From the sequence record ON210138.1: a DNA stretch of 64,000 nt; one strand, 5' to 3'. This DNA is from Escherichia phage EC106. How positions within the stretch are numbered: position 1 is the stretch's first letter; the number at the start of each line of letters is the position of its first letter. The notes under the pieces are model-generated. The model saw nothing but the letters and a program-made list of their open reading frames with translations. It ran no database searches and had not been told where the DNA came from. Shown piece after piece: positions 5,133 to 47,220 of this stretch. The position numbers and the translations under genes are program-made.

Positions 5133-7124
5133 TCACTCAGTTTCGAATGGGCAGTCATCTGCATCCTCACTTAATACAGGTGGAATCGTTGAGCTTTGAC
5201 GCTGCTCTTCAGTATAGACTTCACCAGTCTCACGGTCAAACACTTCATCCTCATAATGTGGCAAAGAGTCATCATAATGGTCTTCAGCTTCACCAATACC
5301 AAACTGTTGGCGAATATTTTCTGCTGCGCCATCAATGTCAACTCCACAACCAGATGCTTTGATGAGGCGTCCTGTATCTGGATTGTACCAAGTATGACCA
5401 GCAATACCCGTTGACTTACCGTGACGACGACACTTAGTTAACTTGATTTTTGTCAAGTTTTTCTTAACAGGGTCTGGGTCAACCTTGTTACGCATTAACA
5501 GAATGTTGTTCATAGAAATCTGGAAATACGCACCAGAACCTTTAATATCCTCTTCAGAGATATCTCCACCTTCGGAGTTAGCCTTCTGACCACCTGCACT
5601 TTTACGAACGTGACAGACGTTTACCTGTGCATACTGGTAGCGTTTACAACGACGCAATAGCTCAGACAAAACTTCCTCTTCATCCGTATCTGAACGTGAC
5701 AGAGCCAACGTAATAGGGTCAAGAATAATAATCTTACAGTCTAAACTGTTAACAAGATAGTCAACAAATTCCAGCAGGTTATCTTGGTCAATTGCACCTT
5801 GATGGTCAACGATGTGGATACGACGACCTTTAGACAGTTCTGCATGTGCTTCCTTCAATTCATCCCAATCACGTTCGTCATAAGGAATCTCAGAAATCTG
5901 CTTGCTCAGGTGGATTGCACAGAGCATCTCCATCAACTCTTCATATGTATCTTCGACAGGAATTACACCAATATTATAATCAGTTTCTTTCCAAGCAGTG
6001 TAAATCATTTCACGGGTATATGCTGATTTACCTACTGAAGATGGTGCTGCCAGAGTTGTAATCTCACCTAAACCATAACCACCATAAGTCAGTCTGTTCA
6101 AATCTCCGAAAGATTCTGGGAAAGGAATCAATGGAATCTGACCACGATTCTTCATTGCCTCAAAACCATCTGCGAAGTTCTTGATACCAGCAGGACAGTA
6201 ACGAGGTGCATTGTAGATACGCTGCTTAAATCCTTCCAGAACTGTATCTTTCTCTTTATAGAACTTTGTCCACCACTCGTTAAGGTCTTTTACACCCTCT
6301 GGATACTGGAATAAACGAACCTTCTCGATAGGGAGAATGCCAGCAGCCTCTTTAGTGGCTTTAGCACCTGCTTCATCGTTATCAAAGCACAAGTAAATCT
6401 CATCAAATGATGTAATGTACTGATAGTTATCCTTGATAGACTTGATGTTTGCACCTAATGGAACAGATACGTGACAGTAATTTTTACGACGAGACTTGTC
6501 TTTAATCGCAAGAGAAGTCATATAGATTGCTGTCGCACATTCCATCTCACCTTCCCAGATGAATAGACGGTTACCACCTTCTGGAGCAATCCATGAACCG
6601 AACATCGCCAGTTCACCTTTAATGTCTCCAACACCACCTGAGAAGTCTTTTAGCTTACCTCGTAGGTGTTCTTTTGGATGGTCTTCTGGGTAACGGTGAC
6701 GAACACGGTAGCCAACATGTTCTAGCTTGCCATCTTCATTGCGTTTGTAAGTTGGGTAGAAATGTGCGTCAATTTCACCGTCACTGTCAATGTCAACCTT
6801 AATACCCAAACGCTCAAGAACTTTTGCAGGAATCTTCCTGTCCTTTAAGTCCATTGCTTCAAGGTTTTCTTTTACATCACCTAAATCCATTCCACGGAAA
6901 GTACGGTTTTTATTATCTGAACCAGTAGAATAAGTGCTCACGATTTGTCCTTTATCAAAATCCCACTCTGGGAAACCTTTGTTACAGCTAAAGCAAGTCA
7001 TCGAATAAGAATCATCGTCATGGTGGTAGATTGAACCAGCATCTGATGAACCACAACGTGGACATGCACAATGACCAATAAACTGACCAGCCTCTTTCAA
7101 TTTACGACCTTTAGACATTAACAC
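5133..7124 (-). CDS. bifunctional DNA primase-helicase (T7 gp4-like)
   Basis: 663 aa; N-terminal Cys4 zinc finger (CPRCGSS...CFSCNKG), TOPRIM-like FDNDEAG, Walker A GLGEITTLAAPSSVGKS in a DnaB-like helicase half. Confidence 0.85.
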   Translation of the reverse strand: MLMSKGRKLKEAGQFIGHCACPRCGSSDAGSIYHHDDDSYSMTCFSCNKGFPEWDFDKGQIVSTYSTGSDNKNRTFRGMDLGDVKENLEAMDLKDRKIPAKVLERLGIKVDIDSDGEIDAHFYPTYKRNEDGKLEHVGYRVRHRYPEDHPKEHLRGKLKDFSGGVGDIKGELAMFGSWIAPEGGNRLFIWEGEMECATAIYMTSLAIKDKSRRKNYCHVSVPLGANIKSIKDNYQYITSFDEIYLCFDNDEAGAKATKEAAGILPIEKVRLFQYPEGVKDLNEWWTKFYKEKDTVLEGFKQRIYNAPRYCPAGIKNFADGFEAMKNRGQIPLIPFPESFGDLNRLTYGGYGLGEITTLAAPSSVGKSAYTREMIYTAWKETDYNIGVIPVEDTYEELMEMLCAIHLSKQISEIPYDERDWDELKEAHAELSKGRRIHIVDHQGAIDQDNLLEFVDYLVNSLDCKIIILDPITLALSRSDTDEEEVLSELLRRCKRYQYAQVNVCHVRKSAGGQKANSEGGDISEEDIKGSGAYFQISMNNILLMRNKVDPDPVKKNLTKIKLTKCRRHGKSTGIAGHTWYNPDTGRLIKASGCGVDIDGAAENIRQQFGIGEAEDHYDDSLPHYEDEVFDRETGEVYTEEQRQSSTIPPVLSEDADDCPFETE

Positions 7125-7319: not shown

Positions 7320-8063
7320 TTAAATCTTCAGGATAGCTCTTAGCTTACTTTCAAGGTCTGCAAGAGTACCATTATTATGAATAATGTCACGCTCATATTT
7401 TGTAGAAATTCCATTCTCTGAAACATGTGATGAAACTTTGCCCACATTGTCTCTTTTTACTTCAATGGTTTGGTGTGCAAATCTACTCAGCCACTCAGCT
7501 TCAGAGTCAAATCTTAAATCACTGATTAAAACAACACCTTCTTGATTTCTAAGTGAGCAAACGTCAAAGAAATTTACCATTCGTTTTTCGAGGTCTTTAG
7601 CCCAGAACTTGTCACCCATAACTTTACGGATAACTTCAGTGCCCCAAATCTGTTGAATTTGTCTTGATGAGAATTTATACTTATTGCTAAATCCCAGACG
7701 TGTTAATAGAGTCGGTTTAGCAACCTTCTTAAGCTCCATAATTAATCGTCCGGTTAGTTCTGAAATAAGCTTGAAATCCATATGGTAACGTTCGCCTTTG
7801 AAGGTAAACTCCATAGCTTCTGTAACTTTGAACATCAGTTCAGGATATGATAAGTCAAAAACCTGTGGAGTCTCTTTAGTTTCACCATACAGGTCATTCC
7901 AAGTTAGGTCAAATATCTTTGATGCAGATAGCTTAAGGTTGTCTGCATAAGCCATTACTGCAACATTGTAGCCGTACTCATCCTCTAAGATGTTCTTCAC
8001 AATAGAACATGATGTGTCTTTTCCAGAACGTGCCTTTCCAGTAAATGCAATAATATTACTCAT
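7320..8063 (-). CDS. deoxynucleoside monophosphate kinase (T4 gp1-like)
   Basis: 247 aa; N-terminus IIAFTGKARSGKDT matches the P-loop of T4-type dNMP kinase (GVKRSGKDT). Confidence 0.7.
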   Translation of the reverse strand: MSNIIAFTGKARSGKDTSCSIVKNILEDEYGYNVAVMAYADNLKLSASKIFDLTWNDLYGETKETPQVFDLSYPELMFKVTEAMEFTFKGERYHMDFKLISELTGRLIMELKKVAKPTLLTRLGFSNKYKFSSRQIQQIWGTEVIRKVMGDKFWAKDLEKRMVNFFDVCSLRNQEGVVLISDLRFDSEAEWLSRFAHQTIEVKRDNVGKVSSHVSENGISTKYERDIIHNNGTLADLESKLRAILKI

Positions 8064-8124
8064 TTTATCTCCCTTAATTACTAAAAAGCCCCCAACTAAG
8101 GAGGCTTGTAAGATTTATAAAGAC

Positions 8125-8926: not shown

Positions 8927-9349
8927 TTATTTCTCTCTCAGTTGGTTAAGTTTCTTTCTAGAACATTTTAAGTTTTCGGATGAAGAAAAGTCAAGTGTCT
9001 TTTCAGAACGTGGATAGTAGTGCCTATCCCAAGAAGTTTCAACATCGTTAATCAGTGACGCTAGATTACACAGGTCTGTACCACTTTGCAACCTCTTTTT
9101 AAGAGAATCTAGTAAAGCAACTGTGTCTTTAGCTTTACGTCTCGCTGTAGCAACATCTTTCATATGCTCAAATACAGAGCATTTTAAGTCATCTTCATAG
9201 TTTTCAGACAACTCTATTTCATGTTGTATATCAACCATTCTCCTGTGATGGTGAGCATATTCCCGTTGAGCAGCAATGTCAAGTTCTTCCAACTTCTGCA
9301 AAGCTCTAACAAAGTCAGCTATGTCTGGGTGAACAAACATTTTCTGCAT
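8927..9349 (-). CDS. hypothetical protein
   Basis: 140 aa ORF, first gene of the leftward unit at the divergent region 9350-9600. Confidence 0.5.
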   Translation of the reverse strand: MQKMFVHPDIADFVRALQKLEELDIAAQREYAHHHRRMVDIQHEIELSENYEDDLKCSVFEHMKDVATARRKAKDTVALLDSLKKRLQSGTDLCNLASLINDVETSWDRHYYPRSEKTLDFSSSENLKCSRKKLNQLREK

Positions 9350-9606: not shown

Positions 9607-11748
9607 ATGGAAAACGTAGATTTTAAAAACTTACATTTGGTTGGTGATACAGAAACTGATGGTTTACTCCTTGAGTTCACTAAAGTGCACGTAATGGCCT
9701 TTGCAGACTATAAATCTGACGATGAAGAGCCACCTGTATGGGTCTTTACAGATGAGCCTATCCTCGGTCACAAGTACACCAAGTACATTAAGGGTGGTTT
9801 ACGTGAAGGTGTTGAGTTTGCGTTAAAGGCAAAACGACTTTGCATCCATAACGGTCTTGGTTATGACTGGTGGGTTTTTAATCACATTGCACCTGATTTA
9901 TGGAACTTTGATAATCCAAAGTGTAAGCCGTGGAGTAATTTCTTTCAGGATTCTCTTATCCAGTCTCGTGTTCAGTGGATGGATAGACCAACTCCAAAGG
10001 GTTATAAAGGTGCTCATGGCTTGGCTGCATGGGGTGCTCGTGTTGGTGTTCGTAAGCCAGAGATTGAGCATTGGGGTGTGTGGAATGCAGAAATCTTCAC
10101 TCGTGTTGTAGAAGATATTCGTATTAACGCCAAAACTAAACGGGCACTTGATAACGAGTATCTCAAGCTTAAGAAGTGTGGTATAGACACTTATGAAACC
10201 TACATGCGAGCTAAAGAAACATCTTTCTGGATGAGTCAACAGGCTATCAATGGTTGGAAAGCTGATAAAGAACTTATGGAGTTCCATGTAAAGGAACTTG
10301 ACAAGTTGACTAATGAGCTTGCTTCAGAGGTTGAACCACATCTACCTCCAACTATTAAGACCAAAGGTAAAGTCACTGGAGAAGAGTTTGCGAAAGCTTG
10401 GAATGAGTATGTTGAAACATTTGGTCATGCAGATGGACTGAAGAGAATTACCAAGTACCCTAAGACAAAGTATCGTCAGCAGGTACGTAATGGTGAGATG
10501 CAGACATACGAAATCAAACCATTTGGTAAGCCAACTACAAAGATTTTTAACATTGGAAAGAGAAATTGCTATACACCAACTAACTCCGTAACTGGTGAAG
10601 AGTACAAGGAAGGCTTTGTAGCAATGAAGGATGCTCGTGCAATTTGCAATGAGTTGAACGCAAAGATTGGTAAGAAATGCAAAGACTGGAAGCCAGTAAA
10701 AACAGTCAAAACTGTGAAGTACTATAACAGCCACGTTGTTAACCACTTTGAACTTGAGTCAAGTCGCTACACAGGTTTGATTGATGCACCATATACACCA
10801 ATTGAGTTTGAAGTTTCTCGTATGACTCAGGTAGCAGTTGTTAAAGATTACTTGAAATCAGTTGGTTGGATTCCAGATGACTGGAATTACAAGAAAGACT
10901 CAGATGGTCGCCCTGTCAAAGTTTGTCGTTTCAAAGACAATAAAAAGATGATTACAAAGCATCCTAAGTGGCAGGAAATGGTTGAGCGGTGTGGTTTGAG
11001 CTATGTTGAGCATGAAGGTGTACAGTACATTGAGCATAACTGGTCTGTGAAGAAGTACACAGATTTGCTTGAGCCTTGTTTAATCCGTACTTCACCAAAA
11101 CTTACTGAATCATCTTACGATACGATTGAAGGTGAACTTGGACAGAAGATTGCGAAGTACTATACTTTGATGCACCGACGCAGAACTATTGAGAACTCAA
11201 AGGACGACGAAAAAGGCTGGTTGAACCAGATTCGTCCAGATGGTCGCCTTAGTGCTGGTGCAATGGTGTTTGGTACTTCAACTGGACGTATGACGCAATA
11301 TGGTATTGTAAACGTACCGTCTGGTGCTGCTGTCTATGGAGCACCTATGAGGGAGGTGTGGATTTGTGAGGAAGGGACTAACGTTGTCTCTGTTGATATG
11401 AACTCAGCCCAGCTAGTTCTTCTTTGTAACTTTATGGGTGATAAAGAGTCCACTAAAGCGGTAACACAAGGTAAAGAAGAGGTTGAGTTCATTCGTCAAG
11501 AAGATGGACGCTATTACTGCAAACACTTTGATGAGTACCTCAACCCAGAGATTGATAAGTACCTTCGCTATGACTCTGAGAATGACCTGTACGTTGTCTA
11601 TTCAGGGACTGATGCACATACACTGAACAGTATCTACTTTAGCTTGAACGATGAGCAGGATATCTTGACTTGTCGAGCTACTCAGGATGAGAATCTTCTT
11701 CATGAGATTAGCAAAGGTCGTAAGAAAGCTAAGAATGGTATCTATGCG
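9607..11748 (+). CDS. DNA polymerase, family A, exon 1 (3'-5' exonuclease and most of polymerase domain)
   Basis: RBS GAGGGAG then ATG at 9607; Exo I motif VGDTETDGL; motif B start KAKNGIY near 11740; frame then runs into intron (in-frame stop at 11788). Exon end approximate (+/-15 nt). Confidence 0.8.
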
Positions 11749-12059
11749 TCAGTGGCGCATGTAAAACGTTGTGAATTGCTGGAAGCCTAAGTCTGTAAAG
11801 ATATGGTAATCAGCAGCGAAGTCTCTGTTAGGACTCCTAAAGCAAATAACATAACTATAGAGATTCCTAACAGAGAAACGTTCAGAGACTATCGAAAAGC
11901 ATACTTAATGTATGAACTGAGTAGAGTAGGGTGGTAAGCTAATGACCATTCCCAAGTGCAACGGTAGTATTACTACTACGTGATATAGTCCGACACTCCG
12001 TAGAAATGCGGAGAAGTTCATAAGAGAACTGGTACACCTTGCGAGTGTATTGACCAGAT
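11749..12059 (+). ncRNA. group I self-splicing intron (no internal ORF) interrupting the DNA polymerase gene
   Basis: Conserved group I core elements in order: P-like AATTGCTGGAAGCC (~11770), Q-like ATGGTAATCAGCAGCG (~11805), R GTTCAGAGACTA (11879-11890), S GATATAGTCCGAC (~11985); polymerase motif B is split across the interruption. Boundaries approximate. Confidence 0.75.
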
Positions 12060-44554: not shown

Positions 44555-44555
44555 T

Positions 44556-44631
44556 TGGCGGGGGATGTTGGAATTGAACCAACTTCTTCGATTTCAAAGA
44601 CCGAGGTTTTAACCTTGTAAACTAATCCCCT
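44556..44631 (-). tRNA. tRNA-Gln (UUG)
   Basis: Stem tcggt/atcga, loop CTTTGAA, T arm gttgg-TTCAATT-ccaac. Confidence 0.6.
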
Positions 44632-44639
44632 TTAAATCT

Positions 44640-45197
44640 TTACTTTCTCAGTGGATGAATAAAGAATGCCAACATAACTCTTTCCCTTGAGAATGCTCTT
44701 TCTTCTGGGACAACACTTTTTAGTTTCCATCCAACATAAATTCTCCAGTAAAACTGTTTACCAAAGACTTTAATTGATGGGATAAAAGCGAATAACCCCC
44801 AAGCATTACTGTTCCACATTAGGAGATAACCAGTCTGATTATCTTCAGGGTTAGAACTTACGTTGATATTACCTTTCCACTTAGTAACATCTTTTACATC
44901 TCTTCCTAATACATGGTAAGAGAAGTTATAAGCTTTGTTTCTCCAGAGCCATCCAACTCTCTGCATGTAGACACCAAGCTTACCAATCTTTCTAATCTTA
45001 GCCCATCTTTTAACGTGGCCTTCATCACCATCAATCGGGTTGTCATAGGTCTCCATCCATCTGAATCCAAAAGGTAGATGCCCTTTCTTCTCACTGTAGA
45101 ATGGAACTACGAAAGGTGCTAAGATGACTGCTAGGGTTGCTGCAAATGGTTCTAGTAAAGCTAAGAAAATCCATGAAGCATACTTCAAATATCTCAT
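44640..45197 (-). CDS. membrane protein embedded in tRNA array
   Basis: 185 aa; N-terminal hydrophobic segments, Trp-rich. Confidence 0.55.
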   Translation of the reverse strand: MRYLKYASWIFLALLEPFAATLAVILAPFVVPFYSEKKGHLPFGFRWMETYDNPIDGDEGHVKRWAKIRKIGKLGVYMQRVGWLWRNKAYNFSYHVLGRDVKDVTKWKGNINVSSNPEDNQTGYLLMWNSNAWGLFAFIPSIKVFGKQFYWRIYVGWKLKSVVPEERAFSRERVMLAFFIHPLRK

Positions 45198-45216
45198 CTA
45201 AATAGCCTCTTAAAAT

Positions 45217-45294
45217 TGGTGTTCCAAGACGGATTCGAACCGTCACTAATACAAGGTTTGAGCTTGCATCCTCTGCCAATTGGGATACTGGAAC
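45217..45294 (-). tRNA. tRNA with CAA anticodon (Leu-type), short variable arm; isotype uncertain
   Basis: Acceptor gttccag/ttggaac, T arm gacgg-TTCGAAT-ccgtc, loop CTCAAAC. Confidence 0.45.
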
Positions 45295-45295
45295 A

Positions 45296-45370
45296 TGGTA
45301 CTCACTAAAGGACTTGAACCTTTTTCTTCATCTTGTAAGGGTGATGTTTTACCATATAAACTAAGCGAGT
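45296..45370 (-). tRNA. tRNA-Val (UAC)
   Basis: D stem gttt/aaac, loop CTTACAA, T arm aaagg-TTCAAGT-ccttt. Confidence 0.6.
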
Positions 45371-45460
45371 GTGAAAGAGGTCTGAAGTTGTGCCGCTAAC
45401 TCAACTCCGTGGAATTTGTTACGGTCTTCAGTTGACACCAGCGGTCTTTCACTTGACCTC
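45371..45460. ncRNA. tRNA-sized structured element without canonical T-loop (possible degenerate tRNA or small RNA)
   Basis: Closed by perfect 7 bp terminal stem agaggtc/gacctct with internal ctgaag/cttcag helix; fills exactly one tRNA-sized slot. Confidence 0.3.
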
Positions 45461-45465
45461 TGAAT

Positions 45466-45542
45466 TGGTGCTGCTCACAGGACTCGAACCTGCATTTCCA
45501 TCCTTACAAGGGATGTGTAATAGCCAATTATACGAAAGCAGC
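45466..45542 (-). tRNA. tRNA-Thr (UGU)
   Basis: Stem catcc/ggatg, loop CTTGTAA, T arm gcagg-TTCGAGT-cctgt. Confidence 0.7.
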
Positions 45543-45548
45543 ATTATT

Positions 45549-45623
45549 TGGAGCATCCAGAGGGAATCGAACCCTCAACCTCAGTTTGGAAGACTGTAAT
45601 TTTCCCGTTTAAACTATGGATGC
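45549..45623 (-). tRNA. tRNA-Gly (UCC), alternative register would give CCA
   Basis: Perfect acceptor gcatcca/tggatgc, T arm gaggg-TTCGATT-ccctc, loop CTTCCAA. Confidence 0.5.
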
Positions 45624-45629
45624 ACTAAT

Positions 45630-45871: not shown

Positions 45872-46116
45872 ATTAAATCTTTTTAGAGAACTTCTAAGAA
45901 CCTAAGCAACAAGGTTCCACAACAAGCTGTAATAACCTTAGAAGCCCTCTAAAAAGACCTAAAAAGGTCTTTGCATAGTCTTGTTTAATCCGGTGACTAG
46001 AACCTTTGGAGAGCTTGATATTATCTCTTCTCCGTGACACCTACTAGGTGTTTTATCAGTGTGTACGACAATACACGAGGGATAAACCGAAAATGCGAGC
46101 AAGCATGGACGGTGTA

Positions 46117-46458
46117 TTAAATCTTTAAGCTAAGTTCAGTCTTAGACTTGATATCTTTAGCTTTGTAGATGATGACTTTATCAAGTGGTTCAATGTAAAC
46201 AGCTAAGTAATCAACCTGAGAGTTATCAAAATTCATTATTCTATTTTCATTCTTGTTAGAACGAACTCTTTTCAGTTGCACTCTCCAAAGTTCACCTCTT
46301 TTGACTGATGTTGATTTTACCTCAACAGTCTCAATCAAACCATCTTTGTGAACTAGAAAGTCATACTTTGCATTATCTGTAGCTGGTGAATACACTTCAT
46401 AACCTCTTTTGAGGAAAGCTAATTGTGTAGCAATTTCACCTACTGAACCTTTCTTCAT
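46117..46458 (-). CDS. PD-(D/E)XK-type nuclease-like protein embedded in tRNA array
   Basis: Track ORF overlaps tRNA-Ser; trimmed to ATG at 46458. Motif YDFLVHKDG...ETVEVKS fits the D...(D/E)xK nuclease pattern. Confidence 0.5.
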   Translation of the reverse strand: MKKGSVGEIATQLAFLKRGYEVYSPATDNAKYDFLVHKDGLIETVEVKSTSVKRGELWRVQLKRVRSNKNENRIMNFDNSQVDYLAVYIEPLDKVIIYKAKDIKSKTELSLKI

Positions 46459-46481
46459 AATCACCACCTTAAAAATCATTT

Positions 46482-46568
46482 TGGCAGAGAGTGCAGGAGT
46501 CGAACCCGTACCGTTTCCAGCAGCACCAGTTTTCAAGGCTGGTTGGTCTCCGTTGACCGCCACTCTCT
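46482..46568 (-). tRNA. tRNA-Ser (UGA), long variable arm
   Basis: Perfect acceptor agagagt/actctct, loop CTTGAAA, 87 nt. Confidence 0.65.
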
Positions 46569-46581
46569 CCGAAACAATCTT

Positions 46582-46664
46582 TGGCATGGGACGGAGGAGT
46601 TGAACCCCTTTGAAACGGTTTTGGAGGCCGTTGCTCATGCCTTAGAGTCTTAACATCGTCCCAC
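46582..46664 (-). tRNA. tRNA-Trp (CCA), enlarged D region
   Basis: Acceptor gtgggac/gtcccat, T arm agggg-TTCAACT-cctcc, loop CTCCAAA; 83 nt. Confidence 0.5.
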
Positions 46665-46883: not shown

Positions 46884-47220
46884 ATTAATCTTTAAAGACT
46901 CTCTTAGAAAGCCCTTAAAGATGCCCACCTTATTAATCATACCGTGGGCTAGTACGCCAAATTCTTTGATGAGGGATTGGAAGACCTCACTGGTGTTTAG
47001 CCTATCAAGCTACTGCCAGAAAAACATTGTCGTTTGCATTTATTTTAAATTTGCAAAATAGACGCTACGCAACGAAAACTATTCAGAATATGTACAACAA
47101 ATTTCCCCACATTGTGTTACGTCTAACGCTCATGTATTGGTGTTTGAATTATACATATGCTGAATCATTTTCAGTTACTATAAAGCGGTCGCATCTCAAT
47201 GTCAACAACTTTATTGAAAT

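Follow-up and report, generated by a model that had tools for sequence, protein, structure and literature searches.

Between the tRNA-Val and tRNA-Thr genes of a Felix O1-type phage sits an element, here called E1, which is very likely a structured RNA maintained by selection and distinct from tRNA. It spans about 87 nt, at 45375-45461 on the minus strand of the window, by which we mean the whole 64,000-nucleotide stretch of Escherichia phage EC106 (ON210138.1) that was analysed. A more specific proposal, to which we give an even chance, is that E1 is a small structured non-coding RNA gene of an undescribed family, forming one unit of a polycistronic tRNA operon and acting in trans, with its invariant apical hairpin as a putative specific binding surface.

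The window is a Felixounavirus (Felix O1-type) genome. In blastn searches Salmonella phage Felix O1 (AF320576) and many of its relatives match the 116 bases around E1 with 100% identity, and 253 phage records, nearly all of them Ounavirinae, match a 701-base stretch of the tRNA region. ARAGORN places 25 tRNA genes between 43280 and 48572, all on the minus strand, and Rfam at the gathering score confirms 23 of them. The initial annotation of this DNA had described a tRNA-sized slot of about 90 nt between tRNA-Val and tRNA-Thr, closed by a perfect 7-bp stem and devoid of a T loop, and these observations hold. Between the flanks mapped by ARAGORN the slot measures 95 nt (45371-45465); on the plus strand AGAGGTC (45376-45382) and GACCTCT (45455-45461) form a perfect 7-bp inverted repeat, and GTTCRA, sought on both strands of the slot, is absent. 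E1 begins 4 nt past the encoded CCA of tRNA-Thr and ends 5 nt ahead of tRNA-Val, while the spacers at the other tRNA junctions of the array range from 1 to 9 nt. The element and its neighbours are as follows.

45466-45542, minus strand: tRNA-Thr(UGU), upstream neighbour with encoded CCA (ARAGORN, Rfam)
45375-45461, minus strand: E1 as a whole, RNA of about 87 nt, matched by covariance model R1 with 116.5 bits; variable spacers bound the conserved block
45296-45370, minus strand: tRNA-Val(UAC), downstream neighbour, beginning 5 nt past the closing stem (ARAGORN, Rfam)

A consensus scan detects neither a sigma-70-like promoter nor an intrinsic terminator beside E1. The nearest minus-strand promoter-like sites upstream of it in the same scan lie at 47205, 48628 and 48719, the latter two just ahead of the first tRNA, and E1 itself does not qualify as an intrinsic terminator, its stem being followed by UUCAC and then by a tRNA. 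Since no promoter- or terminator-like site accompanies it, E1 should be co-transcribed with the neighbouring tRNAs.

Several other features of the region and the window deserve mention in their own right. A long near-perfect hairpin lies at 45872-45966 on the minus strand, just upstream of tRNA-Leu(UAG), and the 119-nt stretch 45872-45990 of the same strand folds to -37.6 kcal/mol (z = -4.5); this stretch also contains the short palindrome AAAGACCUUUUUAGGUCUUU just upstream of the hairpin. The 173-aa open reading frame at 46117-46638 (minus strand) matches a PD-(D/E)XK endonuclease over residues 62-168 only, and its 5' part overlaps tRNA-Ser(UGA) at 46482-46568; its true start is probably downstream of that tRNA. 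The junction between tRNA-Thr and tRNA-Gly beside E1 is prone to indels: it holds the 414-bp ORF105 in Felix O1 (1685-2098 of locus L001), a gap of 211 nt in phage ST11 (444-654 of locus L130) and 6 nt in the window. Elsewhere, at 11738-12013 on the plus strand, Rfam reports a group I catalytic intron with 62.9 bits, above the gathering score.

How widespread is E1? By blastn it occurs in 259 phage records, about 253 of them Ounavirinae (Felixounavirus, Mooglevirus, Suspvirus) and six Avunavirus (Vequintavirinae), such as Av-05 and TH18, with about 82% identity to E1, and it is found in all Felix O1 relatives examined. A metagenome scan with the core pattern yields 19 further copies, all of Felix or Avuna type. 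Bacterial and archaeal genomes, with one representative per species, return chance matches only, the 5,426 complete E. coli genomes contain no copy, and a degenerate core pattern applied to IMG/VR recovers the same phages together with chance matches in coding sequences and no distant homologue. Model R1 has no match in T4, in RB43-like and other DUF7338 loci, or in the phages FBKp34 and P778. In Yersinia phage vB_YenM_P778, a more distant Felix-like phage, the Thr-Val slot (8950-9102 of locus L132) is taken by an acidic 42-aa open reading frame with its own Shine-Dalgarno sequence. None of the inspected GenBank records annotates E1 as an RNA. The slot bears no annotated tRNA in relatives: it is empty in the annotations of Sf14 and Sf17, made with tRNAscan-SE, and of Meda, ST11 and Mordin, made with other pipelines. 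Any feature that a record does place there is a spurious open reading frame, such as the plus-strand ORF107 of Felix O1. Our literature search found no paper on an RNA in the Thr-Val slot and no transcriptome of a Felix O1-type phage.

The limits of the conserved block coincide exactly with the closing stem, and the flanking spacers, 4-6 nt long, vary between close relatives; conservation bounded in this way indicates that E1 is more than a chance sequence. Between Ounavirinae and Avunavirus the identity of E1 is 79-82% (79% for the window and Av-05), to be compared with 58-89% for the 12 tRNAs shared by the window and Av-05 and with 72% nucleotide identity for their DUF7338 gene. An apical region of about 27 nt, GUCAACUGAAGACCGUAACAAAUUCCA, is nearly invariant among the 20 distinct sequences (alignment columns 27-52), and the segment between helices P2 and P3 varies from GGUG to UUGAG, UUUGAG and UUGGG, with single-nucleotide indels. 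The element contains no ATG, and in Av-05 a stop follows after 7 codons. One small open reading frame was considered (GUG start, 18 codons, behind the Shine-Dalgarno-like word AGAGG) and rejected, its frame being lost through the indels and the Av-05 stop. The missing ATG, the non-triplet indels and the stop in Av-05 together imply that E1 is not coding.

The Avunavirus copies lie in a related setting. Positions 44555-45625 of the window are colinear with 5415-6569 of Av-05 (NC_025830), both comprising, in this order, tRNA-Gln, a DUF7338 gene, E1 and tRNA-Gly, with 79% amino-acid identity for DUF7338 and 89% nucleotide identity for tRNA-Gly, whereas the remainder of the two genomes shows only about 25-45% protein identity. 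The likeness of the aligned sequences points to horizontal exchange of this module between Felixounavirus and Avunavirus. Because the module is far more alike than the genomes around it, E1 appears to have moved, or to have been retained, within a small tRNA module; for the same reason the two lineages do not amount to two long independent samples of selection. In Av-05, E1 lies 5-6 nt past tRNA-Gly(UCC) and about 30 nt ahead of a protein gene, and the DUF7338 gene adjoins it. An obligatory link between E1 and DUF7338 was rejected: Sf14 carries E1 although its tRNA array lacks DUF7338, and at locus L061 the reverse is seen, DUF7338 being present and E1 absent. Another gap of the Av-05 array, between tRNA-Tyr and tRNA-Gly (2667-2815 of locus L002, minus strand), contains a sequence resembling tRNA-Ile(GAU), whose T loop is aberrant and which ARAGORN does not call, as well as a 10-bp hairpin.

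What structure would the transcript adopt? On the minus strand the slot reads AUUC, AGAGGUC, AAGUGAAAGA, CCGCU, GGUG, UCAACU, GAAGA, CCGU, AACAAAUUCC and, in its 3' part, ACGG, A, GUUGA, GUU, AGCGG, CACAACUUCA, GACCUCU, UUCAC. The minus-strand RNA is predicted to fold to -30.7 kcal/mol (z = -2.96), with one of 200 dinucleotide shuffles folding equally well. The plus strand folds about as well (z = -2.74), so that folding energy alone does not decide the strand. RNAalifold and manual inspection agree on a predicted rod of four helices, P1 to P4. The 7-bp P1 is followed by an internal loop of 10 x 10 nt (8 x 10 in Av-05), by P2 (CCGCU/AGCGG) and P3 (UCAACU/AGUUGA), by GAAGA, a purine-rich and asymmetric bulge of 5 nt on the 5' side, and by P4 (CCGU/ACGG), which is capped with a loop of 10 nt. 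The parts are listed here in 5' to 3' order of the RNA.

45455-45461, minus strand: P1 5' strand, AGAGGUC, pairing with 45376-45382; G.U variants in sequences L016 and L089
45445-45454, minus strand: J1, 5' side of the large internal loop, AAGUGAAAGA (AAUGAAAU in Av-05); AA..UGAAA conserved and predicted to be unpaired
45440-45444, minus strand: P2 5' strand, CCGCU, pairing with 45393-45397
45436-45439, minus strand: variable internal-loop segment, GGUG; UUGAG, UUUGAG or UUGGG in relatives, with 1-nt indels
45401-45435, minus strand: apical hairpin of P3, bulge and P4 (UCAACU, bulge GAAGA, CCGU, loop AACAAAUUCC, ACGG, A, GUUGA), holding most of the nearly invariant region of about 27 nt
45393-45397, minus strand: P2 3' strand, AGCGG, from the alignment
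45383-45392, minus strand: J2, 3' side of the large internal loop, CACAACUUCA (UCCAACCCUA in Av-05), including the non-conserved CUUCAG
45376-45382, minus strand: P1 3' strand, GACCUCU, from sequence and alignment

Across the 20 distinct sequences 96.6% of the alignment cells pair in this fold, a figure that falls to 30-44% if the 3' partners are displaced by 1-3 columns. Compensatory change is seen at two pairs: in P1 a G-C pair becomes U-A in Avunavirus, and in P2 the path leads from G-C through G.U (L116) to A-U (L084, L085). The covariation score is matched by one of 500 column shuffles. Pairing in the apical hairpin of Av-05 is preserved through G.U variants. Wobble variants comprise eight cells of G.U on the tRNA-sense strand and three of the A.C type, equivalent to G.U on the opposite strand, a bias that mildly favours selection acting on the minus-strand RNA. 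Compensatory change is confined to two helices in an alignment of low sequence diversity; in P3 and P4 the lack of variation leaves no room for covariation. Singleton variants that break a pair occur in L100, L016, L038, L003 and L088. On the whole, the comparative support for the rod appears real but thin.

Other pairings did not survive comparison. The internal CTGAAG/CTTCAG helix of the initial annotation does exist as a repeat in the window (plus strand, 45382-45387 and 45426-45431), but it is not conserved: it is broken in Av-05 and TH18 (CCCTAG) and in L018, L049 and L088 (CTCCAG), and it competes with the conserved helices P2 to P4. The same words taken as a pseudoknot between the bulge and J2 are broken in Av-05, L018, L049 and L088. 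Pairing of GUGAAAG in J1 with CUUUCAC in the 3' tail is perfect in the window, the tail being variable among relatives, and the register of the bulge is unsuitable for a K-turn.

The operon contains further RNAs that are relevant to the nature of E1. It begins just downstream of a 471-aa open reading frame (48738-50153, minus strand) with matches to DUF2828 and DUF7788 and a weak match to vWA, which PHROG names 'RNA-binding protein'. Relatives of this protein are carried by 709 phage records from many hosts, among them a mycobacteriophage 'Ro-like RNA binding protein', and a search of solved structures gives no match at the sequence level. The frame is the counterpart of gp130 of the Felixounavirus Bas63, which is structurally Ro60-like and directly upstream of the tRNA genes according to the Bas63 preprint, in which it is speculated that Y RNAs are among the 'tRNA genes'. 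A knockout screen has linked the Ro60-like gene (Bas63 gp130) to anti-defence activity, and gp130 is reported to counteract a defence system. Four slots of the window's operon are filled by Y-like RNAs.

48323-48409, minus strand: E2, Y-like RNA sharing the family fold with E3
48170-48242, minus strand: E3, Y-like RNA sharing the family fold with E2
47743-47829, minus strand: E5, Y-like RNA matched by model R2
47596-47741, minus strand: E4, Y-like RNA with a tRNA-like domain, matched by model R2

The fold of E2 and E3 consists of a lower stem, an AGA/G bulge, an AGACCNN/NNGGUCU stem and a CAGCAA loop; in the family of 15 sequences 100% of the cells pair and four pairs covary. The covariance model R2, built from E2 and E3, scores E2-E5 at 35-76 bits, and none of the four matches an Rfam family. 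In E4 the bulged stem encloses an anticodon-arm-like hairpin, a T arm (GAAGGUUCGAUUCCUUC), a closed 7-bp acceptor-like stem and a D arm, the layout of the permuted tRNA-like domain of YrlA Y RNAs. FBKp34 and P778 also have R2 matches, located downstream of their Ro-like genes. E2-E5, rather than E1, are the natural candidate partners of the Ro-like protein. In Klebsiella phage vB_KpM_FBKp34 the same synteny is seen (7441-8116 of locus L129), with a DUF2828 gene followed by a tRNA array; a 480-nt gap behind that gene and an annotated '114-nt tRNA-Asp' hold at least five units of the form '...GAAG..UUACAGCAAAU', some apparently inside tRNA-like sequences, which suggests tRNA/Y-RNA chimeras.

Could E1 be something more familiar? 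A degenerate tRNA had been among the initial suggestions, and a decayed gene that kept its acceptor stem alone would account for the tRNA-sized slot, the 7-bp terminal stem and the tRNA-like spacing. E1, however, has no cloverleaf, T loop or encoded CCA: the stem is followed among relatives by UUCAC, UUCAU or UUAAU, while the neighbouring tRNAs encode CCA. Over 45371-45465 ARAGORN detects no tRNA and the tRNA covariance model (RF00005) is silent at E ≤ 10, so that no tRNA fold emerges in a shifted register either, and no residual D, anticodon or T arm is seen. A pseudogene is not expected to keep an invariant core over two subfamilies, and E1 combines compensatory changes with a degree of conservation equal to that of functional tRNAs (79% against 58-89%); decay from a tRNA is exceedingly improbable. 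Nor does any of the 4227 Rfam models, including ribozymes, tmRNA and Y RNA, assign E1 to a family at E ≤ 10 over 45340-45500, the sole hits being the neighbouring tRNA-Thr, truncated (45469-45500), and two snoRNA matches attributable to chance. HDV-like theta ribozymes free tRNA 3' ends behind phage tRNAs, and a self-cleaving ribozyme of an undescribed type, cutting close to its own 5' end and so releasing the 3' end of the upstream tRNA, would agree with the constant position of E1, always 4-6 nt behind a tRNA 3' end, and with its highly conserved unpaired nucleotides. The ribozyme families of Rfam, though, yield no match at E ≤ 10, a nested rod does not correspond to the double pseudoknot of HDV, and for a hammerhead, as read from the sequence, CUGAAGA and GAAA occur in the wrong order, with GAAA absent after the hairpin, all of which leaves self-cleavage highly improbable. 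We attach similarly little credence to a role of E1 as DNA, be it a target of a homing endonuclease or recombinase or a protein binding site. The plus strand folds about as well as the minus strand and mobile insertions abound in the region, as at ORF105 of Felix O1 and in ST11, but the compensatory changes and the excess of G.U on the sense strand point to pairing in RNA, the boundaries are those of a terminal helix with tRNA-like spacing, and the consensus scan sees no promoter-like site in E1.

The two remaining rivals accept E1 as RNA. The processing-site hairpin of the initial annotation retains some merit in a broader form, in which E1 is a cis-acting spacer that aids tRNA folding, guides RNase E or RNase P or blocks exonucleases, and is then degraded. 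In both lineages E1 stands immediately 3' of a tRNA (tRNA-Thr here, tRNA-Gly in Av-05), with no promoter- or terminator-like sites beside it and a terminal stem as long as an acceptor stem. Yet spacers of 1-9 nt suffice at the other tRNA junctions of the array, and E1 is kept despite a different downstream partner, a tRNA here and a protein gene in Av-05. Such a spacer would need a shape and not an invariant sequence of about 27 nt with unpaired bases, and it is these invariant unpaired nucleotides that a simple hairpin leaves unexplained; we consider a purely cis-acting role quite unlikely. In the other rival, E1 is a divergent Y-RNA-like partner of the Ro60-like protein, bound through its bulged apical helix and tethering the protein to a host nuclease such as PNPase. 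The operon starts just past the DUF2828/vWA gene that is Ro60-like in Bas63 and contains four Y-like RNAs, and E1 lies downstream of that gene on the same strand. With its paired ends, large internal loop and a size within the 80-130 nt range, E1 has the general look of the YrlA/YrlB RNAs that partner Ro60/Rsr, and its CUGAAGACCGU...ACGG with a single purine (A) resembles the bulged helix CAGAAGACCGU...ACGGUCU-G of the Y-like RNAs. That candidate motif, however, is in the apical helix of E1, whereas the Y-like RNAs carry theirs in the terminal stem. The terminal stem of E1 is a plain 7-bp helix, its J1 reads UGAAA(G) and not GNCGAA, and E1 has neither a tRNA-like domain nor a GNCGAAN0-1G or CGAA motif in register. 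The best score of R2 over 45300-45540 is 0.5 bits with filters off, and in an nhmmer search of the window with an HMM made from the 5' half of the family E1 comes about 24th, with a non-significant E-value of 8.2. E1 and the Ro-like gene are also uncoupled in their distribution, each occurring where the other is missing: in the complete Av-05 genome E1 is present with no Ro-like homologue (tblastn at E ≤ 10 gives noise only) and no significant R2 match (best E = 0.23, stems mispaired), and P778 has the Ro-like gene and Y-like RNAs with no E1, its slot holding the 42-aa frame. Given these scores and the two-way uncoupling, we keep the Y-RNA reading as a minority rival and an improbable one. Of the options first raised for the slot, another small RNA thus fits best the conservation, the fold and the failure of tRNA and Rfam models to match.

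What could be the mode of biogenesis and action of E1 as a trans-acting RNA of the tRNA operon? Non-tRNA precedents are at hand in the same operon, where E2-E5 fill slots of their own. E1 would be transcribed together with the tRNAs, and co-transcription means that the maturation of its neighbours would define its ends. The maturation of E. coli tRNAs by RNase P, RNase E and 3' exonucleases is well established. On the 5' side of E1, RNase E or exonucleases would remove the 4 nt trailing tRNA-Thr, and on the 3' side RNase P would set E1 free by generating the 5' end of tRNA-Val. In this manner E1 is probably released from the tRNA transcript to persist as a small, stable RNA; its 7-bp terminal stem would shield the free molecule of about 87 nt from exonucleases. 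It would then act in trans, the GAAGA bulge and the AACAAAUUCC loop of the apical hairpin binding a host or phage protein or RNA in a sequence-specific manner. Complementarity of E1 to the rest of the window is weak, with seven 11-mers against about three expected by our own estimate, which is not a shuffle test; none of the seven is a convincing candidate for an antisense target.

Known RNAs of tRNA operons offer partial parallels. In T4, tRNA-Arg is followed by rnaD and then rnaC on the same strand. These are small non-tRNA RNAs that lie head-to-tail with tRNAs and only a few nucleotides past a tRNA, as E1 does; E1 likewise resides in a tRNA cluster, on the same strand and lacking a promoter or terminator of its own. 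The tRNA-processing machinery releases rnaC and rnaD. In sequence E1 does not resemble them, however: R1 is silent in the T4 locus (L039), the folds are unlike, the T4 RNAs measure 139 and 119 nt against about 87 nt for E1, and rnaC keeps a canonical T arm, CCGGGUUCGAAUCCCGG, which E1 lacks. E1 would therefore be a positional and processing analogue of rnaC and rnaD, not a homologue, with the same position and a presumed common mode of biogenesis but another sequence. A functional bacterial tRNA-operon spacer is the 3'ETS-leuZ sRNA sponge of E. coli. Spacers of this type share with E1 the prospect of an RNA gaining function once excised from a tRNA polycistron, and E1 is much more structured than they are.

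A bolder extension of the trans-acting proposal, which we think unlikely as it stands, is that E1 represents a class of trans-acting phage RNAs whose apical hairpin binds or decoys a host nuclease, an RNA-repair or defence protein, or an RNA, and which travels between unrelated phages in a small mobile tRNA module. The current view of phage tRNA arrays is that they counter host defences which cleave tRNAs. Felix O1 is a classic phage of Salmonella typing and biocontrol, and coliphages related to it rank among those isolated most frequently. As E1 is small, sharply bounded and easily deleted or mutated, its function is directly testable. E1 and the four Y-like RNAs behind the Ro60-like gene would broaden the known cargo of phage tRNA arrays, and, if the trans-acting reading is true, E1 would be a second kind of cargo in these arrays besides tRNAs and Y RNAs.
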